From: Acidobacteriota bacterium
Lineage (GTDB): Bacteria > Acidobacteriota > UBA6911 > RPQK01 > JACQSY01
NCBI GenBank assembly: GCA_016211085.1
Contig: JACQSY010000039.1
Span: 3,129 to 67,128 of the forward strand
Length of the DNA stretch: 64,000 nt
Reading direction: 5' to 3'
Each line of letters begins with the position of its first letter. The stretch's first letter is position 1. The notes under the pieces are model-generated. The model was not told the origin of the DNA. It saw nothing but the letters and a program-made list of their open reading frames with translations, and did no database searches. Shown piece after piece: positions 6,699-61,960 of this stretch. The position numbers and the translations under genes are program-made.

Positions 6699-7991
6699 CT
6701 ACGGATAAATGCGATAAAGCATTCTCGGAAAAGGGATGGTCTCGCGCACGTGTTCCAGCCCGCAAATCCAAGCTACCACCCTCTCGATGCCCATGCCAAA
6801 ACCAGAGTGGGGCACCGTTCCGTACTTGCGCAGGTCCAGATACCACTCGAAGGCCTCACGGGGCAGATGATGCGACTCAAGCCGCTGGAGCAGCAAATGA
6901 TAATCGTGAACGCGCTGGCTCCCTCCGATGATCTCGCCGTAGCCTTCCGGGGCCAGGACATCCACGCAGAGCGCCAGTGAGAGGTCCTGGGGATCCGGTT
7001 GAACATAGAAAGCCTTGACCTCAACAGGGTAGCGGTGGACCATCACAGGTAAATCAAACTTCTCCGCTATGACCGTTTCGTCGGTTCCCCCAAAATCAGA
7101 ACCAATGGGAGTTTCACTTCCGGCTTCTTGAAGAATCCGGAAGGCCTCATGGTAGGTAATGCGTGGAAATGGAGGATGGATTTTCTCCAGCAACGTTGTA
7201 TCGCGTTCCAACCGTTTCAATTCTTCTTTTTTTCGATCAAGGACCCGCTGAACGACATAACTGACCAATTCTTCGGCCAGCGCCATCACGTCGTCCAATT
7301 CAGCCCAGGCAATCTCCGGTTCCACCATCCAGAACTCCATTAGGTGGCGGCGGGTCTTGGATTTCTCCGCCCGAAAAGTGGGGCCAAAACAGTACACTTT
7401 TCCGAAAGCCATACAAGTTGCTTCGCTATACAACTGCCCGCTTTGTGTCAGATATGCTTTTTGGTCGAAATATTGAGTTTCAAAAAGCGTCGTGGTTCCC
7501 TCACAGGCGGCCGGTGTAAAAATCGGCGTGTCCACGAGAGTGAATCGGCGCTCCGCAAGAAAGTCGCGGCAGGCGTGAATGATCTCGCTACGCACACGCA
7601 GAATTGCCGTCTGCCTCGAGGAACGCAACCAAAGGTGGCGGTTGTCCATCAAAAAAGCAACGCCATGCTCCTTGGGAGTGATGGGATAATTTTCGGCCAG
7701 TTGAAAAATAGTCAGTTCCGACACATCCAGTTCGTACCCGCCTGGAGCCCTTTCGTCAGCCCGGACTTTGCCTTTTATGATCAAAGAGGACTCTTGCGTG
7801 ACCCGGTCGGCGGCTTCGAATACCTCAGGTTTAACGTTCTTTTGAAAGACCACCGCCTGAACCAATCCGGTTCCATCACGCACCATCAGGAAACGAAGCT
7901 TGCCTTTTTCAGTTTTGTGGTACAACCATCCCTTGATGGTGACTTCTTCGCCTTGGTATTGCGAGATTTCTTCGATATAGGTATGAGCCAT
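6699..7991 (-). CDS. asnS: Asparagine--tRNA ligase
   Basis: Class IIb synthetase. Motif 2 [24 protein letters not shown] resembles the AsnRS type (E. coli FRAENSNTSRHLAEFWM...), not the AspRS type. C-terminal ...GFGMGIERV...FPR. Confidence 0.82.
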
Positions 7992-24261: not shown

Positions 24262-26739
24262 TCAGGCGGGATCGGCGTGCTTCTCAAAGGCGACAACCGA
24301 TCCTGAACGGCGCTTGCGCTGGGTGCGGGTAAGCTTGTCCCGGTACATGGCTTGATCCGCAGCAGCCATGAGAACGCTCAACTCCTCACCGTCAGCAGGA
24401 AACGTGGCAGCTCCAATGCTGATGCCAATCTGAATTGCGTTGGTATCGTCAATGGTCATGCGGTGAGTGTCGACTGCACTTTGAATTCTGGAGATGGTTT
24501 GCTGCGCCAGCGTTTTGTTGACACCCGGAAGAACGCCGATAAATTCGTCGCCGCCATACCGCACGCAAGTGTCCGATTTTCGCATTTGATTACGCAAGAT
24601 ATGCGCCACCTGAATCAGGACCCGGTCCCCCACCTGATGGCCGTAGGTGTCATTTACCTCTTTAAAGGACTCCAAATCCATCATGAGCAGGCTGACCGGA
24701 TAATTGATCCGCTCAGCGCGCTTAAGTTCCTGGCTGATAAAGGTGTTGAAGTAACGTGAATTGGGCAGACCGGTCAGAAGGTCGGTGTAAGCGTCTTCCT
24801 GGGTTTCTTCGTAAATCAATGCGTTCTTGATCGCGGCTGCCGCGTGATTGGAGATGGTCTCCATGATGCGCAGGTGATCATAGTGGTAGACGTTGGCAGT
24901 GGTCGAATAAAGCGTGATCACTCCCACTACGTTGTTGTCAAGCGCGAGTGGAACGGCCAGGCAGCTCTTGAATTCCGTCTGGAGCAGCTTGATGTGAGTA
25001 AAATCCGGGGTGGGTGAAACATTCATCAACGTTTTATTGTTAGCAGCCACCCATCCGGTGACTCCCTGCCCCATGTCAAGCTCCACGCTGTCCAACAGCT
25101 CTGAATAAACGCCCGAAGTATGGTAGGCAACGATCTTGTCATTTTGAGAGCTCAACAGATACACGGCGCACGAGGTAAAAGGAACAAGATTCTTGATCTT
25201 GGTGGCCAGGAGCGCAAGTGTCTCGGAAACATTCAATGATTTTCCGACCGTCCGGGAGAATTCGTAAATAGCCGGAATTTCCTTGTGCATCGATGCGATG
25301 TCATGGAAGACAGTTTTTTGAATCCTTTTGGGCTCCTCGACATCCATGCTGCGCAGGCTGGCCTCGATGCGCTGCATGATGCTTTGGGAAAGATTCATCG
25401 CGGTCGCTTCCAGCTCCTCTTCCAGTTCATCAATGTGCTGTACCAATTGATCGACAAGCATTGGATCATACGCCTTAGCCGATTCCTTTTTGATGAACTC
25501 CAGAGCCACCTGGCGACTGAGCTTGGGTCGATAAGGACGGTCGGAGCGAAGAGCATCATAACAGTCGGCAATCGCCAATATTCGAGCGCCCAGCGGTATC
25601 TGCTCTCCCTTTAAGCCTTCCGGATAGCCCGTGCCGTCCCATTTCTCGTGATGGTAACGTACAAACGGCACCACCGGATAAGGGAAGGGAACGGAGTCAA
25701 GGATGTCCGCGCCCACGGCCGGGTGGACCTTCATTTTCTCGAATTCCGATTTGGTCAGCTGCGAAGGTTTATTAAGGATATATTCAGGAATCGCCAACTT
25801 GCCGATGTCATGCAAAAGGGCTGCAGCCCGGAGCCCCTGGAGCTGGTTCTCATCCGTAAGGTTGCAGTATCGGGCAAGGCCGAGAGCCAGCTTCTGCACC
25901 CGTTGCACGTGACCGTGCGTGCACTGGTCCTTGGCGTCGATCGCCATCGCCAGCGATGCAATCGTTGAATGGTAAAGCTCATTCATTTGATCCAAATGAC
26001 GCTGTGTCTGTTTTATGTGATGAAGGGTGATGTTATATGCATAGTAAATTACAACGACTACTGGGACAGCGAGTGTAATTGAATAGAATTGGATTTCTTT
26101 GAAGTAAAGAAAGATCACCGCGGCAGCGGAGGCGCCTGCAAAGTTCGTGACGGAAGCCCAAAGAAAATTCTGCTTCCAGAGACGCCTGACGCTTTGATTT
26201 GTAAAAAGGGCAATCGCCAAGGCAACCGCCCCGGAGTTCAACAAAAAATAGACTAATGCGCAAAATGCCAAATTAACGAGAAGGGTACTAATACCTCCGA
26301 CCTGATTTGGGTCCAATGGGGCAGATTTACCTTCTAAATAGTAGAAAAGCTTCCCTACTGTGAAGGTCACTAGAGTAAGTTCAGCCAAATTGAACAGTTG
26401 TTTATACAGCTTCTTAACTTTGACTCGAAAACTGCTAAGGAACCCTTCTATTACGGAGATAGTGGCGGCTACTTCCGCACCGAAAAGCAAGATAGCTGTA
26501 AACACAAATATGTCATTGACCGTTATTGACATTGATTGCGCTTTTTGATTGGCAGAAGGAATTCGCACCGGGAAAAAACTACCAACCGCGGTCAAACATG
26601 CCAAATAAAACCAGCGCAGGTCGTTATTGGAGAGAGATTTGATAAGGCAGTATGCGAATAAAGGAAAGCCTGAAAGAATTACTACGGATACGTAAAACCT
26701 TGCTCGACGGGGTATGTCGTCTCTGAAAAGCCCTTTCAT
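24262..26739 (-). CDS. Membrane-bound c-di-GMP turnover protein: multi-TM sensor + HD-GYP + GAF + GGDEF
   Basis: About 240 aa of TM helices. HD-GYP motifs HDIGKLAIP and HHEKWDGTGYP (about 25622-25654). GAF-like region. GGDEF domain with intact RYGGDEF (about 24542-24556) and an RKSD I-site 5 residues upstream. Confidence 0.85.
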   Translation of the reverse strand: MKGLFRDDIPRRARFYVSVVILSGFPLFAYCLIKSLSNNDLRWFYLACLTAVGSFFPVRIPSANQKAQSMSITVNDIFVFTAILLFGAEVAATISVIEGFLSSFRVKVKKLYKQLFNLAELTLVTFTVGKLFYYLEGKSAPLDPNQVGGISTLLVNLAFCALVYFLLNSGAVALAIALFTNQSVRRLWKQNFLWASVTNFAGASAAAVIFLYFKEIQFYSITLAVPVVVVIYYAYNITLHHIKQTQRHLDQMNELYHSTIASLAMAIDAKDQCTHGHVQRVQKLALGLARYCNLTDENQLQGLRAAALLHDIGKLAIPEYILNKPSQLTKSEFEKMKVHPAVGADILDSVPFPYPVVPFVRYHHEKWDGTGYPEGLKGEQIPLGARILAIADCYDALRSDRPYRPKLSRQVALEFIKKESAKAYDPMLVDQLVQHIDELEEELEATAMNLSQSIMQRIEASLRSMDVEEPKRIQKTVFHDIASMHKEIPAIYEFSRTVGKSLNVSETLALLATKIKNLVPFTSCAVYLLSSQNDKIVAYHTSGVYSELLDSVELDMGQGVTGWVAANNKTLMNVSPTPDFTHIKLLQTEFKSCLAVPLALDNNVVGVITLYSTTANVYHYDHLRIMETISNHAAAAIKNALIYEETQEDAYTDLLTGLPNSRYFNTFISQELKRAERINYPVSLLMMDLESFKEVNDTYGHQVGDRVLIQVAHILRNQMRKSDTCVRYGGDEFIGVLPGVNKTLAQQTISRIQSAVDTHRMTIDDTNAIQIGISIGAATFPADGEELSVLMAAADQAMYRDKLTRTQRKRRSGSVVAFEKHADPA

Positions 26740-28848: not shown

Positions 28849-29346
28849 ATGATTTTTTGGCAGGAGTCCCCCAAGAAACAGCAGACAGGGCACGCTGATC
28901 CGAACGGTCGCCGTATGAGGTCCCGCCCGCGAGGTTCCGAAATTTATCGAGAGGCTCTCAAGCAGGCAAGAGAGGAGCGAAGGGAACTGCTCAGGAAAGT
29001 ACAGGCGCTGGATCAGCTGATTGGGTCGGTCGAGCGTTACCTCGGGGAGGTCCCTGCTGCCCAGAACGCAACACCCGTGCCTTTCCAGGCATCATCCTCC
29101 GCCCAGCCGCTTTACGAGGGTATGTCGGCTAACGCCGCTGCCGTCCTTGTACTGGAGCGGGAAAACAAATGGCTGCATATGGACACCATTATTGAGCGTC
29201 TTCTGAAAGGTGGACTGGCAACCGATCGCGACCGGCTCCGGCGCTCCCTTTATACCACCCTGGTTCGAAACCCCCGTGTTATACGGCATCCTTACCGGCC
29301 TGCCACATTTGGTTTGACTGGCTGGGAAGCAAAGTCGGAGCTTTAG
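28849..29346 (+). CDS. Small protein: N-terminal coiled-coil + C-terminal winged-helix (HARE-HTH-like) domain
   Basis: 165-aa ORF 87 nt upstream of the giant regulator, same strand. The C-terminal pattern AAAVLVLERENKWLHMDTIIERLLKGGL...SLYTTLVRNPRVIR...ATFGLTGWE resembles HARE-HTH/RpoE-delta-like wHTH domains. Start is uncertain (28849 or the ATG at 28915), and neither has a Shine-Dalgarno. Confidence 0.5.
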   Translation: MIFWQESPKKQQTGHADPNGRRMRSRPRGSEIYREALKQAREERRELLRKVQALDQLIGSVERYLGEVPAAQNATPVPFQASSSAQPLYEGMSANAAAVLVLERENKWLHMDTIIERLLKGGLATDRDRLRRSLYTTLVRNPRVIRHPYRPATFGLTGWEAKSEL

Positions 29347-29432: not shown

Positions 29433-32400
29433 ATGAGAAACCAGACGGCGCTTCCTATGCCCTTCCCCTATGAAGTCTTGGAGCCGCTGGAGAGGAGCGG
29501 CAATGCTTCAGTCTTTCGCGCTCGGGACCTGCGTAATTCGGATCTGAAGGTTCTGACATTACTTGCTTCTTCTCCTTCAGGTGAGACAGACCTGCGCAAA
29601 GTGGAAGAAGCCTTTGATCAGCGCCGCAGCCTGGAACACCCCTATCTGATCAGGGTTGAAGACCTCGCTTATCGCCACCGCCGCCTCGGATTAATCAGTG
29701 CTTTTCTACGGGCCAGCCCCCTCAAGAAAGCTCGACTGCACAGAGGAGACCGCTTGAACATGGGTCTGCAGCTTTGCGAATTGGTGGCTTATCTCCACGC
29801 CCGGGATTTCTACTTGGGCCTGCTGAGGCCATCGCAAATTTATTGGAGCGCCGACGGACATATTGAGTGCAACATTCTCTTCACCATCCGGCGCGATGAA
29901 CCCCGGGGCGGCGACCTGATCGTTTGCCGCTATTCCTCGCCGGAGTACCTGGAAGGTGGATCCATCACCAGCTGTTCTGATCTGTATTCGTTAGGCATGC
30001 TTCTTTACCTGGTCTTTACGGGCGTCCCTCCGTTCTTGGAACAAGAGCCGGACCATCTAAGAACGAAGCAGCTTTTCGCACGTCCTCTCTCTCCTAGGCT
30101 GATCGACCCTGATTTACCAGCTCCATTGGAGGAGCTCATTGTAGGGCTTCTTGAAAAGAATCCACTCCGCAGACCCTCAGCAGATTACGCACGGCAGATA
30201 ATTCGTGACGTGTGCGGCAATCCGCCTTCCGCACTTCCCAGATTTCGTTCTGTTCTGGTGGGGAGGAAGCGAGAGGTGGAGGCTTGTAGAAAAAGAATGA
30301 CGGCATTTTTGTCAGAGCCTCGGCTGGCCTGCGTGTTGGTCCAAGGGAAAAGCGGGGTGGGGAAGAGCGCATTATTGAGTCGGATGGAGTTGGCGGCGCG
30401 CCTTCGAGGGCTTGAGACCCTTCAGTTGCGACATCACCGCGGCGGGAAAACCATCACTTTCCAGGGGCTGCTCGAACCCCAAAAGTCAGGCAAGATTTCA
30501 AGACTGCCACAAAAAGGAACCTGCCAAACGCTCGCTCAACTGTTGCGAGAGAGACGTAGACCGCTGGTTCTGCTCCTGGATGATCTGCAATGGATGGATG
30601 AGGCTTCTTTCAGCGCTTACCGCAAGCTGCTCTCTTCCACTGCCGCTCCCCTGCTCATGATTGCGGCGGCCAGGACCGATGAATCCTCACCGGTGCTCGA
30701 ACAATTTCGGGTACTTCTTGAGGGAGTTCCTGATTTGGAGCGGATTTCACTTTCGCCTCTGGCTTTTTCCGACGTAACCGCTCTTACAAAGAATCTCCTG
30801 GGAAGTCCGCCTCCGGAAGGTCTCATGAAACAGCTGGCGTCGCAGTGCGCCGGAAATCCCTTTTACCTGTACGAGCGGCTGCGATGCATTCAGGAAAGAA
30901 AGGAATTGACGTACACGGGGGGACGCTGGCACTGGATGCCCCAAGACCTGACTTCTTCCGATCTCCCCGAAAACGTCGCCGAAGACATCCGTTCGAGGTT
31001 GTCGAGCCTCTCCAAGAGCGAGCTTGACCTCTTGAAACTGCTCTCGTTGTTGGAACGTCCTTGCTCGCTTGCGCTGCTGTCTTCGGTTTTGGCGGAATCG
31101 TGCGAGAAGGTGGCGGATACCCTCCGCTTTCTGGAGTCTCTTGATCTGGTAACGCTCTCCGGCGGCCTAAGCAATACCGTAGTTCAGCTCAGCCATGACT
31201 GGGTGGGGCAGGCGGTACAAACCTTGTTGAGACGGAAGGAAGCGCGCGAGCTGCACTTCAAGATTGCAGGGGCCTTGGAGGCGGCGTCAGGCGGCCCGGA
31301 ACAAGAAGCCATTCTGACCTGGCATTTTGCAAAGGCTTGCGCTTCTCAAAAAGTTCAGGACCACCTCTGGAAGGCAGTCAGAAACCTTCAAAAGCAGCAT
31401 CTGTATCGGGATGCCGCTTACTTGATAGTCGTTGTAAAGGAATGTCGCGCGCTGAAACTCGATTCCTGGGAGAAAACCGAGTTGACTATAGAGGCCTTAT
31501 ATTCATCCGGAAAGTTCGATCTTTGTCTAGAAGTAGCAGAGTCGACATTAGCGAAAGGAAGACTTGCGGACTCGAATCGCACCTATGTCTTTTCAAGAAT
31601 CGCCGAAATTCAGCTACTAACCGGCAATATCTTAAAAGCTAGAGTGGCTCTGGACAAGGCACTCCGTCTCAATAGCACAGAGAAAGCACTGCGAATTCAA
31701 TTAGAGGCTCAACTACTTTGCTTATTGAGCAGGTGCGGAGAACAGGGAGAGTCACTTAGTTTAGCTCAACGGCTGTTGGATTCACTAAATGGCTGTGATT
31801 GTGAGGACAAAGTGGCGCATGCTCTTTGCTCATTTGAAGACTCCAAGGGCGGAGTGCAGGAGGCCATTCGTTGGGAAGCGATAGCGGTTAAAGCAGCATG
31901 TGTGAAAAGGAAGTATGTCAGTATGGTAGGGAGGATTTCTAATCTAAGTCATTTTCATGCTGAGTTGGGGGACCTTCATCAGGCTAAGAGATTTGCACGC
32001 TACAGCTTGGAGTTTTCCAGGCAGTTGGGCAATGTGGAAGTCGCGATCTTTTCTCAGACTATTTCCCACATCATTGACCGAAAACAAGGGAGGCATCAGC
32101 AAGCTCTGCAGGGACTTTCTGAATTGCTGGTTCGCAATCGCCAATCCAACCAGAATCGACATGTTGAAGCTGAAATCTGTGTTGAAATCGCCAAGAATTT
32201 AAATTACCTGGTCAACCCACAGGCAGCACTGCAGTGGCTCGATCAGGCGTCTCAGCAGGTGGGAGAGGATCCCATCGCCTCAACCTTGACCGATATTGCC
32301 GTCGCCCGCGCCTGGAGCTATTTGCTCTTAGGAAGACCCCAGGAGGGCCTGCGCCTCATCTCCGAACTGGATTGGGAAAAACTGGTTCGAGGGCGGGTCC

Positions 32401-34463
32401 GTTTTCACCTCTTCTGCGCCTCTGCCCAGTTGTTCGTCGATAATCTGGAGGCTGCCCGTCAGTCCGTATATCAAGCTCTTGCCTTGCTCACGCCCGAAGC
32501 GGTTTATCAGCGTGCTTTGACCCACTTGATTGCTGCAGAAATCTTGTTGAGAGCCGCTGATATTGCGGGCGCGGCCGAACACCTTCAGACGGCAAAAAAG
32601 CTGTGCGTCGAACATTTCTATGCTCCCTTGCTTTCCCGCTGTTATCTTTTGCAAGCGCGCTTCCAACTGGTTAAGCAGGATGCTGCTTACGCGCGAGTCC
32701 TTTGCAAGCGAAGCCTTCAAGTTGCCCGAAGTGTGGAAAGGCCTTTGCTTTTTGCCGAGATTCATCGGCTGTCCGGACATGTTTACGCCGTGGCGCGAAA
32801 CTACGAAGAATCAATTCGCCACTTTGGCAATGCGCTACAGATATTGAAAGAGAGAGCACTTTTCCTTTCTTCTTCCCATCGGGAGTCTTTCATCAAAGCT
32901 TTCGTCAATCCGGTTGAGAACGAAAGAGACGATGTGGCGAAAGTTCCCAGCCGCCCCAGCAGCCAGTACTTGATTCGCTTGCGTGATCTCTTTTCGGAAT
33001 TGCAAGAGAAGAAAAGCCTTGAAGAAGCAGCTGGGGCTTCTTTGGCGATTCTCCGGAGCCTTTTCCCGGAAATGTCGGCCTGTTTGCTGGTGCAGCGGCA
33101 GACAGCGGATCCTCCGGAAACGATTGCGACGGTGGGCCGTTGCCGGCGTTCAGCGTCCGATCTGATAGGGGAAATGAAAAAAGGCGGCCCGGTGCGAGTT
33201 GTCCAGGGCAGTCCTGATCAGCCTCTTACAATTCCCCTGTCGGCCCATGGCAGGCCCTTAGGACTGCTGCATGTGGAAAGCCACACCCGTGTCTTCTCGG
33301 AGCCCGAGCTCGATTTTCTCGACTGCCTTCGCAGCATTCTGGAATTGGAGATAGCCAAATTCTTGGCGGTTCCCGCAACATCCAGGGCGGCTCGCCAGGA
33401 ATTAGTCTTGGTAAACGGTACCCGGCTCGTCGGTTCCCACCCTGAAATGCAGAAGCTGGCTGAACATGTCAGGAAAGTTGCCGTGACCGACGGTACGGTG
33501 ATTGTCACAGGCGAGAGCGGAACCGGGAAAGAGTTGGTGGCGCGCTCGATTCACGAGCTTTCCCCGCGACGTTCGCGAAGGTTTGTCCCCATTAATTGCG
33601 GTGGTCTGACTCAGGAACTGATCGAAAACGAATTATTTGGGCATGCGCGCGGAAGTTATACCGGTGCCCAGCGGGACAAAGCGGGTCTGTTCGAAGTGGC
33701 GTCGGGGGGAACGATGTTCCTCGACGAGATTGGGAGCATGGCGCTTGAGCTCCAGAAAAAGTTACTCAGAGTCCTCCAGCAGCGGCAAATTCGCAGGATC
33801 GGAGAGACTGAGGAAAGAAACATTGATGTCCGGATCATAGCGGCTACCAATCAGCGTCTTGAATCCCTGGTGGAACAAGGACAATTTCGTGAAGACCTCT
33901 ATCACCGCCTGAACGTGCACCAGATTGAGATTCCTCCTTTACGGGAGCGTGAGTCTGACATCCCGATGTTGTGCGCGTTTTTTGTAGATCAGTTAAACCG
34001 CCGTGAGAAGCAAGATCGCCAGCTTTCAGCTGCAGCCATGGAATTGTTGTGCCGCCACCAATACCCCGGCAATGTTCGTGAACTCGAAAACATTGTGGAG
34101 AGCATATACCACCTGAGCCAGGGCCCGCTAATTGATGCCGAAGTGGTGCGCTGGCGGCTGGCTTCGTCAAGACGGCCGGCAAGTTCTTCGCTTCAACAGC
34201 GGGCAAGGGAGTTGAAAGAAGCGCTTTTTCAGGGACGGTTGGAATTCTGGTCGGGAGTCCGCGACGCTTTTTTAAGACGCGATCTGTCTCGCGCCGAAAT
34301 TCGGGAGATGATTTCGTTCGGGTTGGCCGCCTGCGGGGGACGCTACCGCACCTTGCTTGAGCGCTTTCACATGCCATCCGCAGACTACAAGAAATTCATT
34401 TCGTTTCTATCCAATCACGACTGCAAGGTTGATTTTCGTCCCTATCGCCAGAACCGCGCTTGA
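29433..34463 (+). CDS. Giant sigma54-dependent activator: degenerate Ser/Thr kinase + AAA_16/STAND NTPase + helical (TPR-like) repeats + GAF + sigma54-interaction AAA+ + C-terminal tail
   Basis: Uninterrupted 1,676-codon ORF. Kinase-fold motifs SSPEYLEG and DLYSLGMLLYLVFTGVPPF. STAND Walker A QGKSGVGKS (30345-30368) and Walker B LVLLLDDLQWMDEAS. EBP motifs GESGTGKE (33510-33533), GSYTGA (33651-33668), GGTMFLDEIG, RIIAATN, FREDLYHRLNV, YPGNVRELEN. Confidence 0.9.
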   Translation: MRNQTALPMPFPYEVLEPLERSGNASVFRARDLRNSDLKVLTLLASSPSGETDLRKVEEAFDQRRSLEHPYLIRVEDLAYRHRRLGLISAFLRASPLKKARLHRGDRLNMGLQLCELVAYLHARDFYLGLLRPSQIYWSADGHIECNILFTIRRDEPRGGDLIVCRYSSPEYLEGGSITSCSDLYSLGMLLYLVFTGVPPFLEQEPDHLRTKQLFARPLSPRLIDPDLPAPLEELIVGLLEKNPLRRPSADYARQIIRDVCGNPPSALPRFRSVLVGRKREVEACRKRMTAFLSEPRLACVLVQGKSGVGKSALLSRMELAARLRGLETLQLRHHRGGKTITFQGLLEPQKSGKISRLPQKGTCQTLAQLLRERRRPLVLLLDDLQWMDEASFSAYRKLLSSTAAPLLMIAAARTDESSPVLEQFRVLLEGVPDLERISLSPLAFSDVTALTKNLLGSPPPEGLMKQLASQCAGNPFYLYERLRCIQERKELTYTGGRWHWMPQDLTSSDLPENVAEDIRSRLSSLSKSELDLLKLLSLLERPCSLALLSSVLAESCEKVADTLRFLESLDLVTLSGGLSNTVVQLSHDWVGQAVQTLLRRKEARELHFKIAGALEAASGGPEQEAILTWHFAKACASQKVQDHLWKAVRNLQKQHLYRDAAYLIVVVKECRALKLDSWEKTELTIEALYSSGKFDLCLEVAESTLAKGRLADSNRTYVFSRIAEIQLLTGNILKARVALDKALRLNSTEKALRIQLEAQLLCLLSRCGEQGESLSLAQRLLDSLNGCDCEDKVAHALCSFEDSKGGVQEAIRWEAIAVKAACVKRKYVSMVGRISNLSHFHAELGDLHQAKRFARYSLEFSRQLGNVEVAIFSQTISHIIDRKQGRHQQALQGLSELLVRNRQSNQNRHVEAEICVEIAKNLNYLVNPQAALQWLDQASQQVGEDPIASTLTDIAVARAWSYLLLGRPQEGLRLISELDWEKLVRGRVRFHLFCASAQLFVDNLEAARQSVYQALALLTPEAVYQRALTHLIAAEILLRAADIAGAAEHLQTAKKLCVEHFYAPLLSRCYLLQARFQLVKQDAAYARVLCKRSLQVARSVERPLLFAEIHRLSGHVYAVARNYEESIRHFGNALQILKERALFLSSSHRESFIKAFVNPVENERDDVAKVPSRPSSQYLIRLRDLFSELQEKKSLEEAAGASLAILRSLFPEMSACLLVQRQTADPPETIATVGRCRRSASDLIGEMKKGGPVRVVQGSPDQPLTIPLSAHGRPLGLLHVESHTRVFSEPELDFLDCLRSILELEIAKFLAVPATSRAARQELVLVNGTRLVGSHPEMQKLAEHVRKVAVTDGTVIVTGESGTGKELVARSIHELSPRRSRRFVPINCGGLTQELIENELFGHARGSYTGAQRDKAGLFEVASGGTMFLDEIGSMALELQKKLLRVLQQRQIRRIGETEERNIDVRIIAATNQRLESLVEQGQFREDLYHRLNVHQIEIPPLRERESDIPMLCAFFVDQLNRREKQDRQLSAAAMELLCRHQYPGNVRELENIVESIYHLSQGPLIDAEVVRWRLASSRRPASSSLQQRARELKEALFQGRLEFWSGVRDAFLRRDLSRAEIREMISFGLAACGGRYRTLLERFHMPSADYKKFISFLSNHDCKVDFRPYRQNRA

Positions 34464-37000: not shown

Positions 37001-37417
37001 ATGAAAGCCCGCGAGATCATGACCAAACATCCGGCAACGTGCACGGAGGATGATCCCATCTTGAACGCGGTTCAAATCATGAAGCAGCACGACTGTGGTG
37101 CTGTGCCGGTCACCGACCTGCAGGGGCGCTGCGTAGGTATAGTGACCGACCGTGATATTTGCCTTGAAGTAGTACTCAAAGGCTTGGGGCCGGAGAAATC
37201 CCGGCTTCGTGAGATCATGAGTTCCCACCCCGTTACCTGTAATCCACAAGAAGACATAGAACGGGTTCTCCAAAAGATGGAAGAGCACCAGATCCGTCGC
37301 ATTCCTGTGGTGGATGAATCGGGGAAATGCGTGGGCATCATCGCACAGGCAGACCTGGCCCTAAAGGTTCAAGAAAAGGAAAAAGTCAGTGAGCTGGTCG
37401 AGGCGGTCTCTCGATAG
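37001..37417 (+). CDS. CBS-domain pair protein
   Basis: Two CBS motifs (...IMTKHPATC......VQIMKQHDCGAVPV... and ...IMSSHPVTC...HQIRRIPVVDESGKCVGII). GGAGG Shine-Dalgarno 5 nt upstream of the ATG. Confidence 0.85.
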   Translation: MKAREIMTKHPATCTEDDPILNAVQIMKQHDCGAVPVTDLQGRCVGIVTDRDICLEVVLKGLGPEKSRLREIMSSHPVTCNPQEDIERVLQKMEEHQIRRIPVVDESGKCVGIIAQADLALKVQEKEKVSELVEAVSR

Positions 37418-39894: not shown

Positions 39895-41094
39895 ATGTCC
39901 TTGACGCGAAGCCGTATTAGCCATAAAGCCTCTCGATTCACGGAATCAGTGATTCGTGAAATGACCAGGCTCGCCAACCGGCACAATGCCATCAACCTTG
40001 CCCAAGGTTTTCCCAATTTCCCTGCGCCAGAAGAAATCAAGAATGCTGCCTGTGCTGCGATTCAAAACGATGTGAACCAGTACAGCATTACCTGGGGTTC
40101 AGCGGAATTCCGGAGGTCGATAGCGGAAAAATACCGGACTTTTTACGGATGGGAAGTGGATCCGGAGCGAGAGATCACGGTCGGCTGCGGCTCCACTGAA
40201 TGCATGATTGCCTCCATTTTAGCCCTGGTGGATCCGGGTGACCGGGTGGTGATCTTCGAGCCTTTCTATGAGAACTATGGTCCGGACGCCATCATCGCTG
40301 GGGCCCGACCTGTTTTCATCCCCCTGGATTCAACAAAGGGATGGAGCTTCGATCCGGAGTTGCTTGAGAATAAAATCAGGTCCGCTTCGAAAGACACTGG
40401 AATACGGGCTTTGATTTTGAATACACCCAACAATCCCACTGGCCGAGTTTTCTCGCTTGCCGAATTGCAATGCATTTCGGAGCTAGCACAGCGTTATAAC
40501 TTTTATGTTCTCACTGACGAGATTTATGAACACATCACTTATGAGGGGTGCCGGCACTACCCTATCGCCTTGCTGCCCGGTATGGAGGAGCGAACCGTCA
40601 CTATTAGCGGCCTCTCCAAGACATTCAGCGTAACGGGTTGGCGAATCGGGTACATCATCGCGCCGCCGGACTGCTCGTCAGCCATTCGCAAAATGCACGA
40701 TTTCCTTACGGTCGGAGCGGCAGCTCCGCTGCAAGAAGCCGGAGTCGCTGCCTTCCAATTGGGTCAAGATTACTACCGTAAGCTCGCCGAGGATTACACT
40801 AAGCGTCGTGATTTTCTGGGCGCGGCTTTGACGGAAGCAGGATTTAAGATCTGGAAACCTTTCGGGGCTTACTATATGATGGCGGATATTTCAGGATTGA
40901 CCCATCTCGGTGACGTGGAGTTTGTAAACGAAATGATCTGCAGGTATGGAGTTGCGGCCGTACCTGGCAGCAGCTTCTTCCATGATCCTCAGCTGGGAAA
41001 GCACTTGGTGCGATTCGCATTCTGCAAGTCCTTGGACGTGCTAAGTCAAGCTGCCGAACGGCTCATGGAGCTTGGTAAAGATTTCAAGTCGTGA
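39895..41094 (+). CDS. Class I/II pyridoxal-phosphate aminotransferase
   Basis: NLAQGFPNFP, NTPNNPTG and the PLP-lysine context SGLSKTFSVTGWRIGY. Confidence 0.85.
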   Translation: MSLTRSRISHKASRFTESVIREMTRLANRHNAINLAQGFPNFPAPEEIKNAACAAIQNDVNQYSITWGSAEFRRSIAEKYRTFYGWEVDPEREITVGCGSTECMIASILALVDPGDRVVIFEPFYENYGPDAIIAGARPVFIPLDSTKGWSFDPELLENKIRSASKDTGIRALILNTPNNPTGRVFSLAELQCISELAQRYNFYVLTDEIYEHITYEGCRHYPIALLPGMEERTVTISGLSKTFSVTGWRIGYIIAPPDCSSAIRKMHDFLTVGAAAPLQEAGVAAFQLGQDYYRKLAEDYTKRRDFLGAALTEAGFKIWKPFGAYYMMADISGLTHLGDVEFVNEMICRYGVAAVPGSSFFHDPQLGKHLVRFAFCKSLDVLSQAAERLMELGKDFKS

Positions 41095-41705
41095 TTAGAA
41101 AAACAATAAAACGAGTCAAAAACGAAGATCAGGAAATCATCCGTCGCATTCTTGACGGAGAGCAATGGCAGTATCAGTATTTGGTGGAAAAGTACCAGCA
41201 GCGGGTCATAAACATCGTGGCCTGTATAACGGGAGACCGCACGGAGGCCGAGGACATTACACAGAAGGTTTTCATCAAGATCTACTATTCTCTGGACAGG
41301 TTCGATCCTTCGCTCCCCTTCTTCCCATGGCTCTATCGGGTGACTGTTAATCAATGCTATGACGAGCTCAGGCGATTTCGAAGGAAACGCCAGACCATTT
41401 TCTCGGACATGGACGGCTCCGAGACGCAAATCGTCGCAGAGCCGATTCGCAGGCCGGACCATCATCTGGAGCGGAAAAACCTGGCTGGACTGGTCCGCAA
41501 GCTGCTATTTTCGCTTCCCCGGCGCTACCGGGACATTTTGATATTGAAGGATGTTGCCGACCATTCTTATGACGAGATTTCAGAAATACTCGGGTGCAGT
41601 ATGCAGGCAGTTCGGCTGAAGGTTTTCCGGGCCCGTAACTTATTAAGAAAAAAAATTTCACATTTGATGAAAGAAGAACGGCGTTTTCTCAGTAGTTATC
41701 AATGA
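41091..41705 (+). CDS. ECF-type RNA polymerase sigma-70 family factor
   Basis: Region 2 (FPWLYRVTVNQCYDELRR) and region 4 HTH (SYDEISEILGCSMQAVRLKVFRARNLL). GTGA overlap with the upstream gene. Confidence 0.85.
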   Translation: MIRKTIKRVKNEDQEIIRRILDGEQWQYQYLVEKYQQRVINIVACITGDRTEAEDITQKVFIKIYYSLDRFDPSLPFFPWLYRVTVNQCYDELRRFRRKRQTIFSDMDGSETQIVAEPIRRPDHHLERKNLAGLVRKLLFSLPRRYRDILILKDVADHSYDEISEILGCSMQAVRLKVFRARNLLRKKISHLMKEERRFLSSYQ

Positions 41706-42546: not shown

Positions 42547-44313
42547 ATGGAAAACCGAGAACTGGCGAGAGTCTTCTCGGAAATGGCCGACATCCTTGAA
42601 TTGACCGAAGGAAATTCTTTCCGAATCCGGTCCTTCCGCAGAGTCTCCCAAACCATAGAAAATCTAGGTTTTAGCCTTGCCAAAACTTTCCGTGAAGATA
42701 TTGAAAAAGTGCGCCAGCTTCCGGGAATCGGTGAGGGGACTATCCGTAAGATCCAGGAATTGCTCGATACCGGGACGTGTCAGGAATACGAGCAGCTGAA
42801 GGCGAAACTGCCCCCCATGCTTATTTCCATGCTGGAGCTACAGGGTGTCGGTCCCAAAAAAATCTCTCTCTTCTGGCACGCTCTCGAAATCACTTCAATT
42901 GACGAGTTGGAAGCCGCTGCGCGCGCACAAAGACTGAGAGTCCTCCCCGGGATGGGAGAGAAGAGTGAAAAAAAGATATTCAGAGCGATCCAAGAGTATC
43001 GTCAGCGGGGAGGACGGATCCGTCTCGACGAGGGTCTTGAAATCGCGGCATCTTTAATTGCTAACCTCCAGGAGAGGGTCGCTCCTGAGCAGATTGCATA
43101 TGCAGGAAGCTTGCGGCGCCGCAAGGACACCGTGGGGGACGTCGACCTGCTGGTTAGCTGCGGTGTTGCACCGTCCCAGGCCATAGAGGCATTTACGAGT
43201 CATGGGTCTGTTCGGTCCGTCCTCGCCAAAGGCGATACCAAGGCTTCCGTCATACTTTCTCGTGGAGTTCAGGCTGACCTGCGTGTGATCGACTCTCAAT
43301 CCTTCGGTGCTGCTTTGCAATACTTCACCGGGTCGAAGGAACACAATGTAGCCCTCCGTGAACGAGCCAAAAGAATGGGTTACAAGATCAATGAGTATGG
43401 AGTTTTCCGAATTGACGATAATTCAAGAATTGCCGGTACCGAGGAGTTGGAGGTTTACTCTGCGCTTGACCTGCCGTTGATTCCTCCTGAACTGCGTGAA
43501 GGCCACGGAGAAATCGAGAAAGCAGAGCGCAATGAATTGCCCCGTTTGATTGAGCTCAGGGATATCCAAGGCGACCTCCACGTTCACACAGTCGCTTCGG
43601 ATGGCCGCGATACGGTTTTTGCAATGGCTCAAGCTGGCTTGGAGGCGGGCTACCAGTACATTGGAATTACCGACCACAGCAAAGCTGTAGCCGTCGCACA
43701 TGGACTGGACGAAAAACGATTGATCGCACACTTGGACGAAATCGATCGAGTGCGTAAAGCACAACCAGGCATTGCTATCTTGAAAGGCATCGAGGTGGAT
43801 ATCCTGGCGGAAGGGGCCCTTGACCTGAGTGAGGAGGCGCTCTCGGGTCTTGATGTGGTAGTTGCTTCCATACACAGCCGATTCAATATGAGCGAAAGAG
43901 AAATGACTCTTCGCGTGTGCAGAGCGCTGGAAAATCGATTCGTGAACATCCTGGCCCATCCGACGGGGCGGCTGCTCACGAGAAGAGAGCCTTACCCGGT
44001 AAATTTGCAGGAAGTCATCAAAGTAGCTCTCCAGAACCGAGTGTGCCTGGAAATTAATGCTTACCCGGAACGACTCGATCTATCCGATGTGCACTGCAGA
44101 ATGGCCAAGGAGAACGGAGTTCTTTTGAGCATTAATTCTGACAGTCACAACCGGCAGATGCTCCATTACATGAAGTACGGTATCTACACTGCTCGACGAG
44201 GATGGTTAGAACCCCAGGATGTTATAAATACATACGTATTGGATGACTTAAGACGGGTGCTCAAGAAGGAAATCTATGCCGGATCGATTTCTAGGAGCCT
44301 GGAGAAAAGATGA
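42547..44313 (+). CDS. Family X DNA polymerase with C-terminal PHP phosphoesterase domain (PolX)
   Basis: HhH motifs (LPGIGEGT, LQGVGPKK). Pol-beta nucleotidyltransferase motif GSLRRRKDTVGDVDLLV. PHP domain GDLHVHTVASDG...ITDHS. Confidence 0.9.
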   Translation: MENRELARVFSEMADILELTEGNSFRIRSFRRVSQTIENLGFSLAKTFREDIEKVRQLPGIGEGTIRKIQELLDTGTCQEYEQLKAKLPPMLISMLELQGVGPKKISLFWHALEITSIDELEAAARAQRLRVLPGMGEKSEKKIFRAIQEYRQRGGRIRLDEGLEIAASLIANLQERVAPEQIAYAGSLRRRKDTVGDVDLLVSCGVAPSQAIEAFTSHGSVRSVLAKGDTKASVILSRGVQADLRVIDSQSFGAALQYFTGSKEHNVALRERAKRMGYKINEYGVFRIDDNSRIAGTEELEVYSALDLPLIPPELREGHGEIEKAERNELPRLIELRDIQGDLHVHTVASDGRDTVFAMAQAGLEAGYQYIGITDHSKAVAVAHGLDEKRLIAHLDEIDRVRKAQPGIAILKGIEVDILAEGALDLSEEALSGLDVVVASIHSRFNMSEREMTLRVCRALENRFVNILAHPTGRLLTRREPYPVNLQEVIKVALQNRVCLEINAYPERLDLSDVHCRMAKENGVLLSINSDSHNRQMLHYMKYGIYTARRGWLEPQDVINTYVLDDLRRVLKKEIYAGSISRSLEKR

Positions 44314-57472: not shown

Positions 57473-57487
57473 TGGCACGCCGGTTGC
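57473..57487 (+). promoter_or_regulatory. sigma54 (-24/-12) promoter candidate P3: TGGCAC-GCCGG-TTGC
   Basis: Reads cacTGGCACgccggTTGCCtga on the plus strand, 150 nt upstream of the OmpA-family gene start. Matches the consensus TGGCAC-N5-TTGC. Confidence 0.7.
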
Positions 57488-58427: not shown

Positions 58428-58917
58428 CCTTTGGACTATACCCGTCGGAATTTTTTCGTGGTTGAAGGTCAATACTTTTCAGCCGTTGGAGATCTTTCTG
58501 AAGCCGTTCGATTTCCCGATCCCGCGCAGCCGTCTCAGATCGGGATCGCTCCGCATCATTGTGCAATTTCAAAAGAAGCGCAGCTTCCTGAGCGTAGGTT
58601 GTACCGGGATGGTTTTCAATGAGCTGCTTAAAAACGATGGGTGCCTGCGAACTCTTTTCGCTTACTGAGATATAGCAGAATCCCAACCTCAAGAGCGCTT
58701 GAGGCACACCGTCAGCGGATGGGAACTCTTGGAGGTATTGCTCATAAGCTTCTGCTGAAAGTTCGTATTGGCCGGAAGCAAACAGATTGTCGGCTGCAAG
58801 GAGTTCCGTCTGGCCTGCGGCGATCGGAGGCAGTGGAAGCGTGCGAGGTTTTTTTTGGCAACCCGCCAGGAGAATCAGGCCCAACACGATCGCCGCTGTG
58901 CGCTTTTTCCTGTTCAT
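58420..58917 (-). CDS. Lipoprotein with TPR-like helical domain, last gene of the two-component operon
   Basis: Lipobox LLAGC. ATGA overlap with the histidine kinase stop. Helical repeats (...LFASGQYELSAEAYEQYLQEFP...). Confidence 0.5.
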   Translation of the reverse strand: MNRKKRTAAIVLGLILLAGCQKKPRTLPLPPIAAGQTELLAADNLFASGQYELSAEAYEQYLQEFPSADGVPQALLRLGFCYISVSEKSSQAPIVFKQLIENHPGTTYAQEAALLLKLHNDAERSRSETAARDREIERLQKDLQRLKSIDLQPRKNSDGYSPKGE

Positions 58918-60449
58918 ACGGGGGCTGAATGCACCTCCGGAAGACGCTGGTCGGTGCGCAGAAGCACAGAGAAAACACTGCCCGAGGAATCGGGCCGATC
59001 CTGGACCCAGATAGCGCCCCCATGAGCTTCCACGATAGTCCGACTAATAGCCAGCCCCAGCCCCACACCCTGTCCGAAAACTTTTTTTCCTTGTTTGACC
59101 TGATGGAATTTTTCAAAGATCAGCTCTTTTTGTTGATTGGGGATTCCCGGGCCGGCATCGGCTACGGAGACCATAGCGAAAGGAGAACGGAATCCATTGC
59201 TCAGTGATTTCAAAAATCGTTCCGGCAGGTCGGAAGGAAGCTCCGCGACGGATTCGACTTGTACGCGAATTGAAGAACCGGACGGAGAAAAATTCAAGGC
59301 GTTGCTGAGCAGATTCTCTACGACCTGCAGAATTCGATCAGGATCACAAGGAACCACAACTGATTCGGCGGGCGCGTTTAGTTCAAGCTTGTTTCCCTTC
59401 TCTCGTGCAGGCGCGTCGAACTCCGCAACTGCGGTCCGTACCAGACTCACAAGGTCCTGGGGTTTTATCTCGTAACGCATCACGCCCGCCTCCATTCGTG
59501 AGAGATCCAGGAGGTTACTAATCATGGAGGACAAGCGTTTACTACTTTGCAGGCTGAGCTGCAGCAGGCGCCTCTGCTTTTCGCCCAGCGGTCCTGGTAT
59601 CTCCTCCAGCAAAAGGCTGAGAGTTTCATGGATAGATGCAAGAGGGGCTTTCAGTTCGTGTGATACGTGTGAAACGAAATCTTTTTTTAATTGATCCAGC
59701 TCATTGAGGCGCATGGCCATGTTGTTGAAGGCTCGGCTCATCTGGGTAAACTCGTCCTTGCCGTTTTCTGAAAGGCGGTACGAGAATTGCCCTCTAGCAA
59801 TGGCTCGCGTCCCTTCAGTCAGTTTTTTCAATCGGTTTGAAAGCGGCTGAAGCGAGAAATAAGAAACCAGCAGGGCCAGGGCCAGCGCGCCGGCTGCCGA
59901 CAACCAGAACACGCGCGTAGCTGTTTGCACTGCTTGCTGAGACGTTTGAACTTCACGCACGATCGACTGCTTGGTGGATTCGAGTACGGAGTCGGTTAAA
60001 CGGTGCAAACGCGCGAAGGATTTTTCCAGATCGCTGCGAAAGGCATCTTCGGCAGCAGGTGCTGCGGAGGCCAGGGTGGCGGCGTTGCCGTCCCGCAGAA
60101 AATCCCTCCAGGAGGAACGAAGTACGGTAAAGGCCTTTTTTTCACGCGGGTTCTGCAGGGTGCTTCCTAGTTCCTCGAGATGCCGTGTAAAACTATGTTG
60201 CAGCTCTTCCAGCTTCTCTTGATAGCCTGCGTCACCCCGGGTCACCAGCAGCTTCCACGTGTATTCTTCGACTTCTTCGAGTTCACGGATTAGTTGCAAA
60301 GATGCCGAGGCTGCTTTGAATTGGACCTGGGCTAGATCGTGGGTGAGTCTTTGCAGTTGGTGCAGCACCGCAACCTGGTAGGCAAGGACCGAAAGGATCA
60401 GGAGGATAAGAACGGCAAAACCCGTTGCTATCCTGGTGGAGATTTTCAC
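58914..60449 (-). CDS. Sensor histidine kinase (TM + HAMP + HisKA + HATPase_c)
   Basis: H-box SHELKAPLASI, N-box LLSNALNFS, G-boxes DAGPGIP and GQGVGLGLAISR. GTG start. Confidence 0.85.
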   Translation of the reverse strand: MKISTRIATGFAVLILLILSVLAYQVAVLHQLQRLTHDLAQVQFKAASASLQLIRELEEVEEYTWKLLVTRGDAGYQEKLEELQHSFTRHLEELGSTLQNPREKKAFTVLRSSWRDFLRDGNAATLASAAPAAEDAFRSDLEKSFARLHRLTDSVLESTKQSIVREVQTSQQAVQTATRVFWLSAAGALALALLVSYFSLQPLSNRLKKLTEGTRAIARGQFSYRLSENGKDEFTQMSRAFNNMAMRLNELDQLKKDFVSHVSHELKAPLASIHETLSLLLEEIPGPLGEKQRRLLQLSLQSSKRLSSMISNLLDLSRMEAGVMRYEIKPQDLVSLVRTAVAEFDAPAREKGNKLELNAPAESVVVPCDPDRILQVVENLLSNALNFSPSGSSIRVQVESVAELPSDLPERFLKSLSNGFRSPFAMVSVADAGPGIPNQQKELIFEKFHQVKQGKKVFGQGVGLGLAISRTIVEAHGGAIWVQDRPDSSGSVFSVLLRTDQRLPEVHSAPV

Positions 60450-61945: not shown

Positions 61946-61960
61946 TGGTACGCCGGTTGC
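61946..61960 (+). promoter_or_regulatory. sigma54 (-24/-12) promoter candidate P4: TGGTAC-GCCGG-TTGC
   Basis: Reads cgcTGGTACgccggTTGCGtgc, 51 nt upstream of the ATG at 62011. 18 of 20 nt are identical to P3. Confidence 0.62.

Follow-up and report, generated by a model that had tools for sequence, protein, structure and literature searches.

The locus and its gene product

Within a 64,000-nt stretch of contig JACQSY010000039.1 from an Acidobacteriota bacterium (the window, by which we mean the whole of this stretch) lies a single gene whose predicted product joins a sigma-54 AAA+ motor to an N-terminal input region composed of a pseudokinase, a STAND NTPase, helical repeats and a divergent GAF domain (Table 1). 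An initial annotation of the region, made from the sequence alone, had described one uninterrupted open reading frame (ORF) of 5,031 nt with six parts in a fixed order, and both descriptions have held: the frame from 29433 to 34463 translates stop-free, and the domain order is upheld by Pfam for the kinase, AAA_16 and sigma-54 AAA+ domains, by a TPR_2 match for the repeats and by hhalign and structure comparison for GAF. The product is identical to NCBI entry MBI4445150.1 ('sigma 54-interacting transcriptional regulator', from a 75-kb contig of an Acidobacteriota metagenome-assembled genome); a second possible start, M9 (29457), agrees with the N-termini of the orthologues. Judged by the curated family cut-offs, the Pfam matches above threshold run, from N to C terminus, Pkinase, AAA_16, Sigma54_activat and AAA_lid_14.

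Table 1. Modules of the activator gene and neighbouring features in the window, with dN/dS (ratio of non-synonymous to synonymous substitution rates) for each module
Feature	Position (nt)	Strand	Residues	dN/dS	Basis or remark
Whole gene, sigma-54 activator with pseudokinase-STAND-TPR-GAF input	29433..34463	+			1,676 codons, stop-free ORF
Pseudokinase, PknB-like fold	29466..30233	+	12-267	0.29	Pfam, PknB alignment, motif location
STAND nucleotide-binding oligomerization module (AAA_16)	30255..30872	+	275-480	0.28	Pfam, motifs, alignment
Winged-helix/arm and ~650 amino acids (aa) of helical TPR/MalT-like repeats	30873..32912	+	481-1160	arm 0.43; TPR 0.31	Pfam; end-to-end relatives over aa 1-1156
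Divergent GAF	32958..33362	+	~1176-1310	0.38	Profile-profile alignment and AlphaFold2/Foldseek
Sigma-54 interaction AAA+ and lid	33426..34181	+	1332-1583	0.095	Pfam, NCBIfam, motif location
Clade-specific five-helix C-terminal domain, 93 aa	34182..34460	+	1584-1676	0.065	AlphaFold2, hhalign, conservation
MASE9-HD-GYP-GAF-GGDEF cyclic diguanylate (c-di-GMP) enzyme gene	24262..26739	-			Recurrent neighbour
Nucleotidyltransferase (NTP_transferase) gene	35602-34556	-
Ysc84/SYLF-domain gene	36541-35714	-
56-aa DUF1328 membrane-protein gene	36890-36720	-
HAMP histidine kinase	58914-60449	-			Adjoins the 57473 and 61946 sites
Canonical receiver-Sigma54-HTH_8 regulator, NtrC-type, GAFTGA	60458-61816	-

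The input domains

The N-terminal domain matches Pfam Pkinase (PF00069) over aa 25-253 with 39.8 bits, against a cut-off of 31.7, and the closest solved structure is that of PknB from Mycobacterium tuberculosis (3f61, E 1.5e-15, aa 12-267). In the alignment with PknB, the HRD motif has become LGL (aa 128-130), with the catalytic Asp replaced by Leu, the catalytic-loop Asn is replaced by Gln 135, DFG reads I(L)FT (aa 148-151) and the glycine loop GFGGMS has degenerated to ERSGNA (aa 20-27); K39, E58, SPE (169-171), DLYSLG (183-188) and KNPLRRP (242-248) are retained. The same catalytic losses were found in all 19 clade representatives, most of which keep the alphaC Glu and a basic residue at the position of the beta3 Lys. 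Since the kinase fold is present and its catalytic residues are lost, the domain is read as a pseudokinase and not as an active Hanks-type Ser/Thr kinase, so that the 'degenerate kinase' of the initial annotation was correct, and it is most likely a non-catalytic docking or dimerization module. In a sister protein with the same C-terminal tail, P0007 (1,818 aa; L032 2198-7654), HRD is replaced by HSN, but the G-loop, VAVK and DFG are intact; it is a pseudokinase that has probably retained ATP binding. Its GAF domain is canonical and its loop reads GAFTGA.

Following the pseudokinase, Pfam AAA_16 (PF13191) matches aa 275-410 with 53 bits (cut-off 32.6). Walker A of this STAND module is GKSGVGKS (aa 305-312; 30345-30368), Walker B is LVLLLDD (aa 378-384), inside DDLQWMDEAS (30564-30608), and a GNPFY motif at aa 474-478 (30852-30866) is invariant in a five-sequence alignment; a GNPF motif is typical of LAL/AAA_16 proteins. 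As both P-loops of the protein, this one and that of the AAA+ motor, are intact, two ATPase checkpoints may reasonably be inferred for this protein, though not as a general property of the clade. The helical-repeat character of the region that follows is supported by Pfam scores, yet a single repeat family passes its curated threshold (TPR_2, 34.4 bits, cut-off 27), with TPR_MalT (29.8, cut-off 45) and ARM_TT21_C (28.7, cut-off 35) falling below theirs. The repeats are presumed, by likeness to known STAND proteins, to be the sensor.

The Pfam searches proposed in the initial annotation supported its other domains but gave GAF only 16.5 bits (E 0.01), which is below the family cut-off. A profile of five orthologues nevertheless aligned by hhalign to the Pfam-positive GAF domains of paralogues over 116 columns (probability 90.8%, E 1.2e-6). 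An AlphaFold2 model built from 15 sequences (predicted local distance difference test, pLDDT, 81) matched solved GAF domains alone in the PDB, with 67 matches at E<=1e-3 and template-modelling (TM) scores of 0.6-0.67, the top ones being the PtsP GAF domain 3trc (E 8.3e-6, TM 0.65) and 3ci6 (TM 0.66). From profile and model together, the predicted GAF alpha/beta fold is genuine but divergent; a motif G-x-C-R-x-x-G/S (aa 1235-1241) is conserved within it across the clade.

The sigma-54 motor and the C-terminal tail

Sigma54_activat (PF00158) covers aa 1332-1499 with 236.6 bits, against a cut-off of 20.2, and AAA_lid_14 covers aa 1504-1583 with 74.4 bits. Walker A (GESGTGKE, 1360-1367), Walker B (FLDEIG, 1429-1434), RIIAATN (1467-1473), the arginine-finger region (FREDLYHRLNV, 1485-1495) and sensor II (PGNVREL, 1545-1551) were all located, and the AAA+ module is complete. 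The L1 loop that contacts sigma-54 reads GSYTGA (aa 1407-1412; 33651-33668); throughout the clade it is G(S/A)(F/Y)TGA, and GSFTGA in most members. Relative to GAFTGA, Ser in place of A2 occurs in functional LevR and Tyr in place of F3 in functional TouR (PMC3162934), and as both single substitutions are thus found in functional activators, we take the GSYTGA loop, each substitution of which is known singly, to be compatible with sigma-54. The NCBIfam models for NifA, NorR, RtcR and NtrC match the AAA+ core only and score 295-314 bits against cut-offs of 476-650; such scores, far under the cut-offs of these equivalogs, indicate that none of the named regulators is orthologous to the protein.

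No Pfam family matches the last 106 residues, and the tail domain proper (aa 1584-1676) matches neither HTH_8 (PF02954) nor any other family even at E<=10, which agrees with the initial annotation, where no classical Fis-type helix-turn-helix (HTH) had been seen. The consensus of the tail is FW..VRD.FL.RDLSR..vR.ii..GL.aCgGsYr.L...F.lP..DYKkF..FLs.H.CKVDFRpyR, and its conserved end is H-x-C-K-V-D-F-R-P-Y-R (aa 1662-1672). Structure prediction, which the annotation had proposed for this fold, gave a confident five-helix domain (AlphaFold2, pLDDT 93.9). By hhalign the tail aligns to the HTH_8 tails of paralogues with 85.6% probability (E 5.6e-6) over 30 columns only; helices 3-5 (1621-1634, 1638-1644 and 1649-1661) align weakly to the Fis-type HTH, and sub-threshold HMMER alignments land on the HTH of FleQ and ZraR. 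The tail occupies the position that HTH_8 has in paralogues, is net basic (18 K/R versus 11 D/E) and is the most constrained segment of the protein. It is presumed to be a Fis-type DNA-binding domain that has diverged and become extended, and of all the domain assignments this one is the least secure.

A pattern scan with the tail motif over one genome per GTDB species yielded 25 loci, all of them in Acidobacteriota; at most of them the open frame is 1,670-1,745 codons long and the motifs recur. Shorter activators at loci L025 and L029 end in the same tail. Apparent 'stand-alone' copies of 92 aa were rejected as fragments, P0129 being the terminal piece of an orthologue that two insertion sequences (IS) have broken up, and a short GAF-activator at L030 was rejected as a frameshift-fragmented copy of P0007. 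The frame at L029 (7550-10231; CP070717.1, Acidobacteriota bin48 chromosome) has 893 codons and joins a phosphofructokinase domain (aa 26-333, E 8e-99) to Sigma54_activat and the tail; it represents either a real phosphofructokinase-activator fusion or a lost stop codon.

Conservation and authenticity of the gene

Four proteins (P0002-P0005) are collinear with the window protein and share its architecture, with 32-37% identity over 99% coverage, and phmmer with the N-terminal 1,156 residues recovered approximately 25 end-to-end representatives of 1,636-1,707 aa (50% clustering); with such recurrence, chance is no concern. All six modules recur in the same order in more than 20 independent assemblies, complete chromosomes included, and in more than 20 genomes of Acidobacteriota a collinear orthologue has conserved syntenic surroundings. 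The flanking order EF-G, LGT, pseudouridine synthase, divergent GT2 glycosyltransferase and activator is common to the window and locus L001, the orthologue of which is 37% identical to the window protein; at loci of the window type, GT2 and the activator are separated by inserted genes for a MASE9-HD-GYP-GAF-GGDEF protein and an S8 peptidase. GC content is continuous across the gene (0.50-0.56), with no compositional break. Eight orthologues, each of exactly 1,693 codons and free of stops, provided the dN/dS values in Table 1, which range from 0.065 to 0.43 and indicate purifying selection on every domain. The contig does stem from a metagenome-assembled genome, and such a frame could in principle have arisen if the assembly were chimeric or if two or more neighbouring genes were read through as one; the recurrence of identical domain order in the same chromosomal neighbourhood across many independent assemblies, together with the even composition and the constant length of the eight orthologues, answers that worry, reduces the probability of an artefact to a negligible level and excludes a chimera for practical purposes. 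These comparisons indicate a real gene that has been inherited vertically and is functional from end to end.

At L007, L008, L010, L022, L024 and L030 the frames are shorter because frameshifts or insertions interrupt what is the same gene. At L005 (583-8279; ENA ERZ25069017 contig_5) the orthologue lies in three pieces with IS3-family (rve) and IS256-family (Transposase_mut) insertions, and is a pseudogene in that genome.

Gene neighbourhood and sigma-54 sites

The c-di-GMP enzyme encoded in the window has intact HD, GYP, RxxD I-site and GGDEF motifs. Its gene lies two genes upstream of the activator in the window and at L007-L009 and L026, and nearby at L010 and L024. At the P0007 locus the corresponding gene (L032 7656-10106) is directly downstream of the activator and convergent with it, 2 nt away, and a GAF-HD-GYP gene (L005 8418-9620) adjoins the IS-disrupted orthologue. 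Genes for c-di-GMP enzymes thus occur near tail-bearing activators in at least three sub-lineages; they are absent from loci of the L001 type. The genomic association offers a possible lead to a c-di-GMP connection of the activator.

Two exact TGGCAC-N5-TTGC sites are present in the window. One, TGGCACATAAGTTGC (36934-36920, minus strand), is 30 nt upstream of the DUF1328 gene, which with the Ysc84 and nucleotidyltransferase genes forms a group convergent with the activator gene; the other, TGGCACGCCGGTTGC (57473-57487, plus strand), precedes an OmpA-family gene. A -24/-12 site nearly identical to the latter, TGGTACGCCGGTTGC, is found at 61946-61960 (plus strand). Exact and well-placed sites, along with a canonical NtrC-type activator in the window that forms a two-component pair with the HAMP histidine kinase, make it appear that the organism uses sigma-54; none of the sites is assigned to the activator described here. 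The P0005 orthologue has a Ysc84 gene (L003 2992-3669) 4.3 kb upstream, with a weaker sigma-54 site; the arrangement of the DUF1328-Ysc84-nucleotidyltransferase group is not conserved elsewhere, and we do not claim this group as a target. A gene for a tandem-CBS protein (37001-37417, plus strand) is divergent from the DUF1328 promoter.

Two palindromes in the GT2-activator intergenic region, GCTCA-N2-TGAGC and GATCAA-N3-TTGATC, were set aside as uninformative because they occur only at closely related loci of the L001 type. Their positions are 7768-7781 and 7883-7897 in L001 and the same in L011, L012, L016, L021, L027 and L028, and their conservation may be phylogenetic. A 165-aa ORF (28849-29346, plus strand) 87 nt upstream of the activator, the N-terminal half of which is coiled and which matches HARE-HTH only weakly (E 0.038), has no counterpart in related loci and was not retained as part of the system. 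The window also contains genes for an ECF sigma factor (41091-41705, plus strand) and a PolX-PHP DNA polymerase (42547-44313, plus strand); like the tandem-CBS gene, they showed no unusual features.

Proposed mechanism

Our working hypothesis, to which we give a somewhat better than even chance (approximately 0.55), is that the gene encodes a chromosomal one-component activator of an Acidobacteriota lineage, in which a MalT/PknK-type STAND front of ~1,150 residues has been placed on a GAF-AAA+-tail enhancer-binding module. The sensors of STAND proteins are of TPR type, their effector domains may lie N- or C-terminally, and one subfamily includes both MalT and PknK; at rest such proteins, MalT among them, are closed, ADP-bound monomers, until binding of an inducer at the TPR/SUPR sensor releases the arm, and in MalT the nucleotide-binding domain then opens, ATP replaces ADP and multimerization gathers the effectors (PMC4381067). 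Sigma-54 activators are hexamers that oligomerize on upstream DNA and touch sigma-54 with the GAFTGA loop, and N-terminal domains control most of them in cis (PMC7057263). By analogy with MalT, the resting protein would have a closed, ADP-bound STAND part and would be monomeric or dimeric, with the AAA+ ring unassembled. Inducer would be bound by the TPR sensor, and the GAF pocket, as well as a partner or a nucleotide bound to the pseudokinase, may add further input. Opening of the nucleotide-binding domain would be followed by exchange of ADP for ATP and by multimerization, which would gather the GAF-AAA+ modules on enhancer DNA held by the C-terminal domain; the AAA+ hexamer would then form, its GSYTGA loops would contact sigma-54, and ATP hydrolysis would open promoters. 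The GAF domain may serve as a second small-molecule input or as an intramolecular brake. The simplest combined model, in which STAND multimerization licenses assembly of the AAA+ ring, is the most likely by this analogy.

Several observations weigh against such a mechanism. Of the 19 clade representatives, 4 (P0005, P0151, P0158 and P0162) have a degenerate Walker A in the STAND module, and the first acidic residue of its Walker B varies widely across the clade, whereas neither Walker A of the AAA+ domain nor the G(S/A)(F/Y)TGA loop varies in the same 19; this decay of the STAND motifs in some members implies that the nucleotide cycle is not essential for all of them. MalT multimers are polydisperse and not hexameric (PMC4381067), and the geometry of a STAND multimer may be a doubtful fit to an AAA+ ring. 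Foldseek with the whole tail found nothing significant in the PDB (best E 4.6), and the HTH assignment, with one 30-column profile alignment and sub-threshold HMMER alignments behind it, is weak. No rpoN gene is present among the ORFs of the 64-kb window, a scan for TGGCAC-N5-TTGC over the window and 22 related loci gave no promoter conserved beside the activator, and no enhancer beside the activator gene is conserved across the orthologues. The uneven state of the STAND motifs also favours the main competing explanation, that the GAF domain alone gates the motor, as in NorR, NifA and FhlA, and that the pseudokinase-STAND-TPR region is a scaffold, docking platform or negative regulator; if there is no nucleotide cycling in the STAND part, one real ATPase checkpoint is left. 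A kinase that is catalytically dead in every representative would suit this, as would dN/dS values of 0.28-0.43 in the N-terminal modules, 3-6 times those of the AAA+ domain and tail, and the fact that the adjoining domain regulates most such activators in cis (PMC7057263). Yet Walker A, the DD of Walker B and GNPF are intact here and in most clade members, a dN/dS far lower than 1 across 1,150 residues points to a kept function, and the GAF domain that would have to do all the gating is itself below the Pfam cut-off and no better conserved than the STAND part. On balance we consider gating by GAF alone unlikely, although it is the competitor to be taken most seriously.

A tail with neither a Pfam HTH nor a significant PDB neighbour, in which the invariant H1662, C1664 and D1667 might mark a binding site for a metal or ligand, might be a protein-interaction or ligand-binding module of an enhancer-independent activator that acts from solution or via a partner. 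Activators lacking a DNA-binding domain include FlgR of Helicobacter pylori and CtcC of Chlamydia. We regard this as improbable for a basic tail that sits where HTH_8 sits, aligns to HTH_8 and, below threshold, to the HTH of FleQ and ZraR, and bears the strongest purifying selection in the protein. Two deviations from GAFTGA, a motif in which changes frequently abolish activity (PMC3162934), and an unusual DNA-binding domain could also be taken as signs of a sigma-54-independent regulator that, like TyrR, DhaR, HupR or VpsR, represses transcription or works at sigma-70 promoters. Sigma-70-dependent homologues, however, have deletions or changes at T4 instead (PMC3162934), not A2 to Ser or F3 to Tyr, and the uniform loop of the clade, the high Sigma54_activat score and the presence of every ATPase motif render a sigma-54-independent role highly improbable. 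Hardly credible is a function in defence, as an anti-phage (Avs-like) STAND protein or otherwise: STAND NTPases and kinases do occur in defence systems, and the PADLOC models PD-T4-6, mad6 and RtcR-type match individual domains, but these matches are to generic kinase and AAA+ domains only, the gene lies in conserved synteny among the housekeeping genes for EF-G, LGT and pseudouridine synthase and not in a defence island, and the output is a transcription motor.

Should the STAND-gated activator be correct, it is interesting to speculate that it represents an undescribed form of sigma-54 control, combining a STAND switch and pseudokinase adaptor that would drive formation of the AAA+ ring through induced proximity, two nucleotide-dependent oligomerization steps, an Acidobacteriota-specific DNA-binding domain and c-di-GMP wiring; taken as a whole this is a possibility that we put forward tentatively and well short of even odds. 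Sigma-54 activators are AAA+ machines gated by sensory domains and STAND proteins are ligand-gated oligomerization platforms, and a natural fusion of both, if true, could be used to ask whether one oligomerization switch licenses another. It would also bear on the role of bacterial pseudokinases and on Acidobacteriota, abundant soil bacteria with almost no characterized regulators. As a candidate for a new DNA-binding module, the constrained, clade-specific tail could make it possible to predict a regulon. An uncharacterized architecture that is visible in databases does not, as such, change present understanding.

Relation to known systems

The full-length search, from which the figures are for the best 120 matches clustered at 90% identity, contained at least 24 clusters with Pkinase, AAA_16 and Sigma54_activat, most also with GAF and HTH_8, and approximately eight further clusters with Pkinase and Sigma54_activat; their source names include Myxococcota, Planctomycetota and Acidobacteriota. 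The rarity of the combination implied by the initial annotation is therefore not sustained, and the architecture, which recurs in dozens of public genomes, is uncharacterized but visible in databases. Full-text literature searches found no publication on a kinase/STAND-sigma-54 activator fusion, in keeping with the annotation's statement that no characterized member was known. The annotation had further held that kinase-AAA_16-TPR regulators normally end in LuxR/MalT-type domains. Among the same best 120 matches, LuxR/GerE and BTAD/Trans_reg_C ends are instead found on AAA_16 proteins without a kinase, and kinase-bearing relatives mostly have no DNA-binding domain, or have HisKA/HATPase, GGDEF/EAL, cyclase or STAS ends; some consist of the kinase-AAA_16 front without any output. 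With the N-terminal 1,156 aa, 24,748 proteins of the Pkinase-AAA_16-TPR superfamily were matched at E<=1e-10. The variety of outputs among these relatives suggests that outputs are interchangeable in this STAND family, the sigma-54 motor being one of several. Motif comparison places the window protein in an Acidobacteriota-specific subfamily with a dead kinase, a divergent GAF domain, a GS(F/Y)TGA loop and a new C-terminal domain.

The next-best matches after the orthologues are uncharacterized Pkinase-AAA_16-(TPR)-GAF-Sigma54_activat-HTH_8 proteins of 1,600-2,300 aa (P0008-P0027, P0035 and P0042), which have the same module order. Many of these, P0012, P0014 and P0016 among them, still have HRDxKxxN and DFG and are likely to be active kinases, whereas the kinase of the window clade is dead; their GAF domains exceed the Pfam threshold and they end in HTH_8, whereas in the window clade GAF is divergent and the tail is different; and their loop is mostly GAFTGA, with GSFTGA in P0019 and P0023, compared with G(S/A)(F/Y)TGA in the window clade. 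PknK of M. tuberculosis and other Pkinase-AAA_16-TPR kinases resemble the window protein in their PknB-like fold, AAA_16 module and TPR-like repeats, but these STAND kinases are active, with HRD and DFG (P0052-P0056), and the kinase is their output, whereas here the kinase is dead and the predicted output is transcriptional.

At the other end of the protein, the order GAF, sigma-54 AAA+ and, presumably, C-terminal DNA-binding region is that of NifA, NorR and FhlA. The NifA and NorR models, however, reach only 309-314 bits, on the AAA+ core, against cut-offs of 528.85 and 476, respectively, and compared with these activators the window protein has ~1,150 extra N-terminal residues, a replacement for HTH_8 and a GAF domain too divergent for Pfam. 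FleQ and VpsR are AAA+ transcription regulators that are functionally linked to c-di-GMP; the likeness of the window protein to them in this respect is by gene neighbourhood alone, and its architecture differs. MalT of Escherichia coli and the LAL/AAA_16 regulators share with the window protein the P-loop, an hhhhDD Walker B and a GNPF-type motif, and in MalT, as is predicted here, an arm, a TPR/SUPR-like sensor and a DNA-binding output are combined in one chain, with inducer-dependent multimerization presumed for the window protein. MalT recruits sigma-70 RNA polymerase through its effector, a LuxR-type HTH; in place of that HTH the window protein has a GAF-AAA+ sigma-54 motor and a non-LuxR helical domain, and it has in addition the N-terminal pseudokinase.

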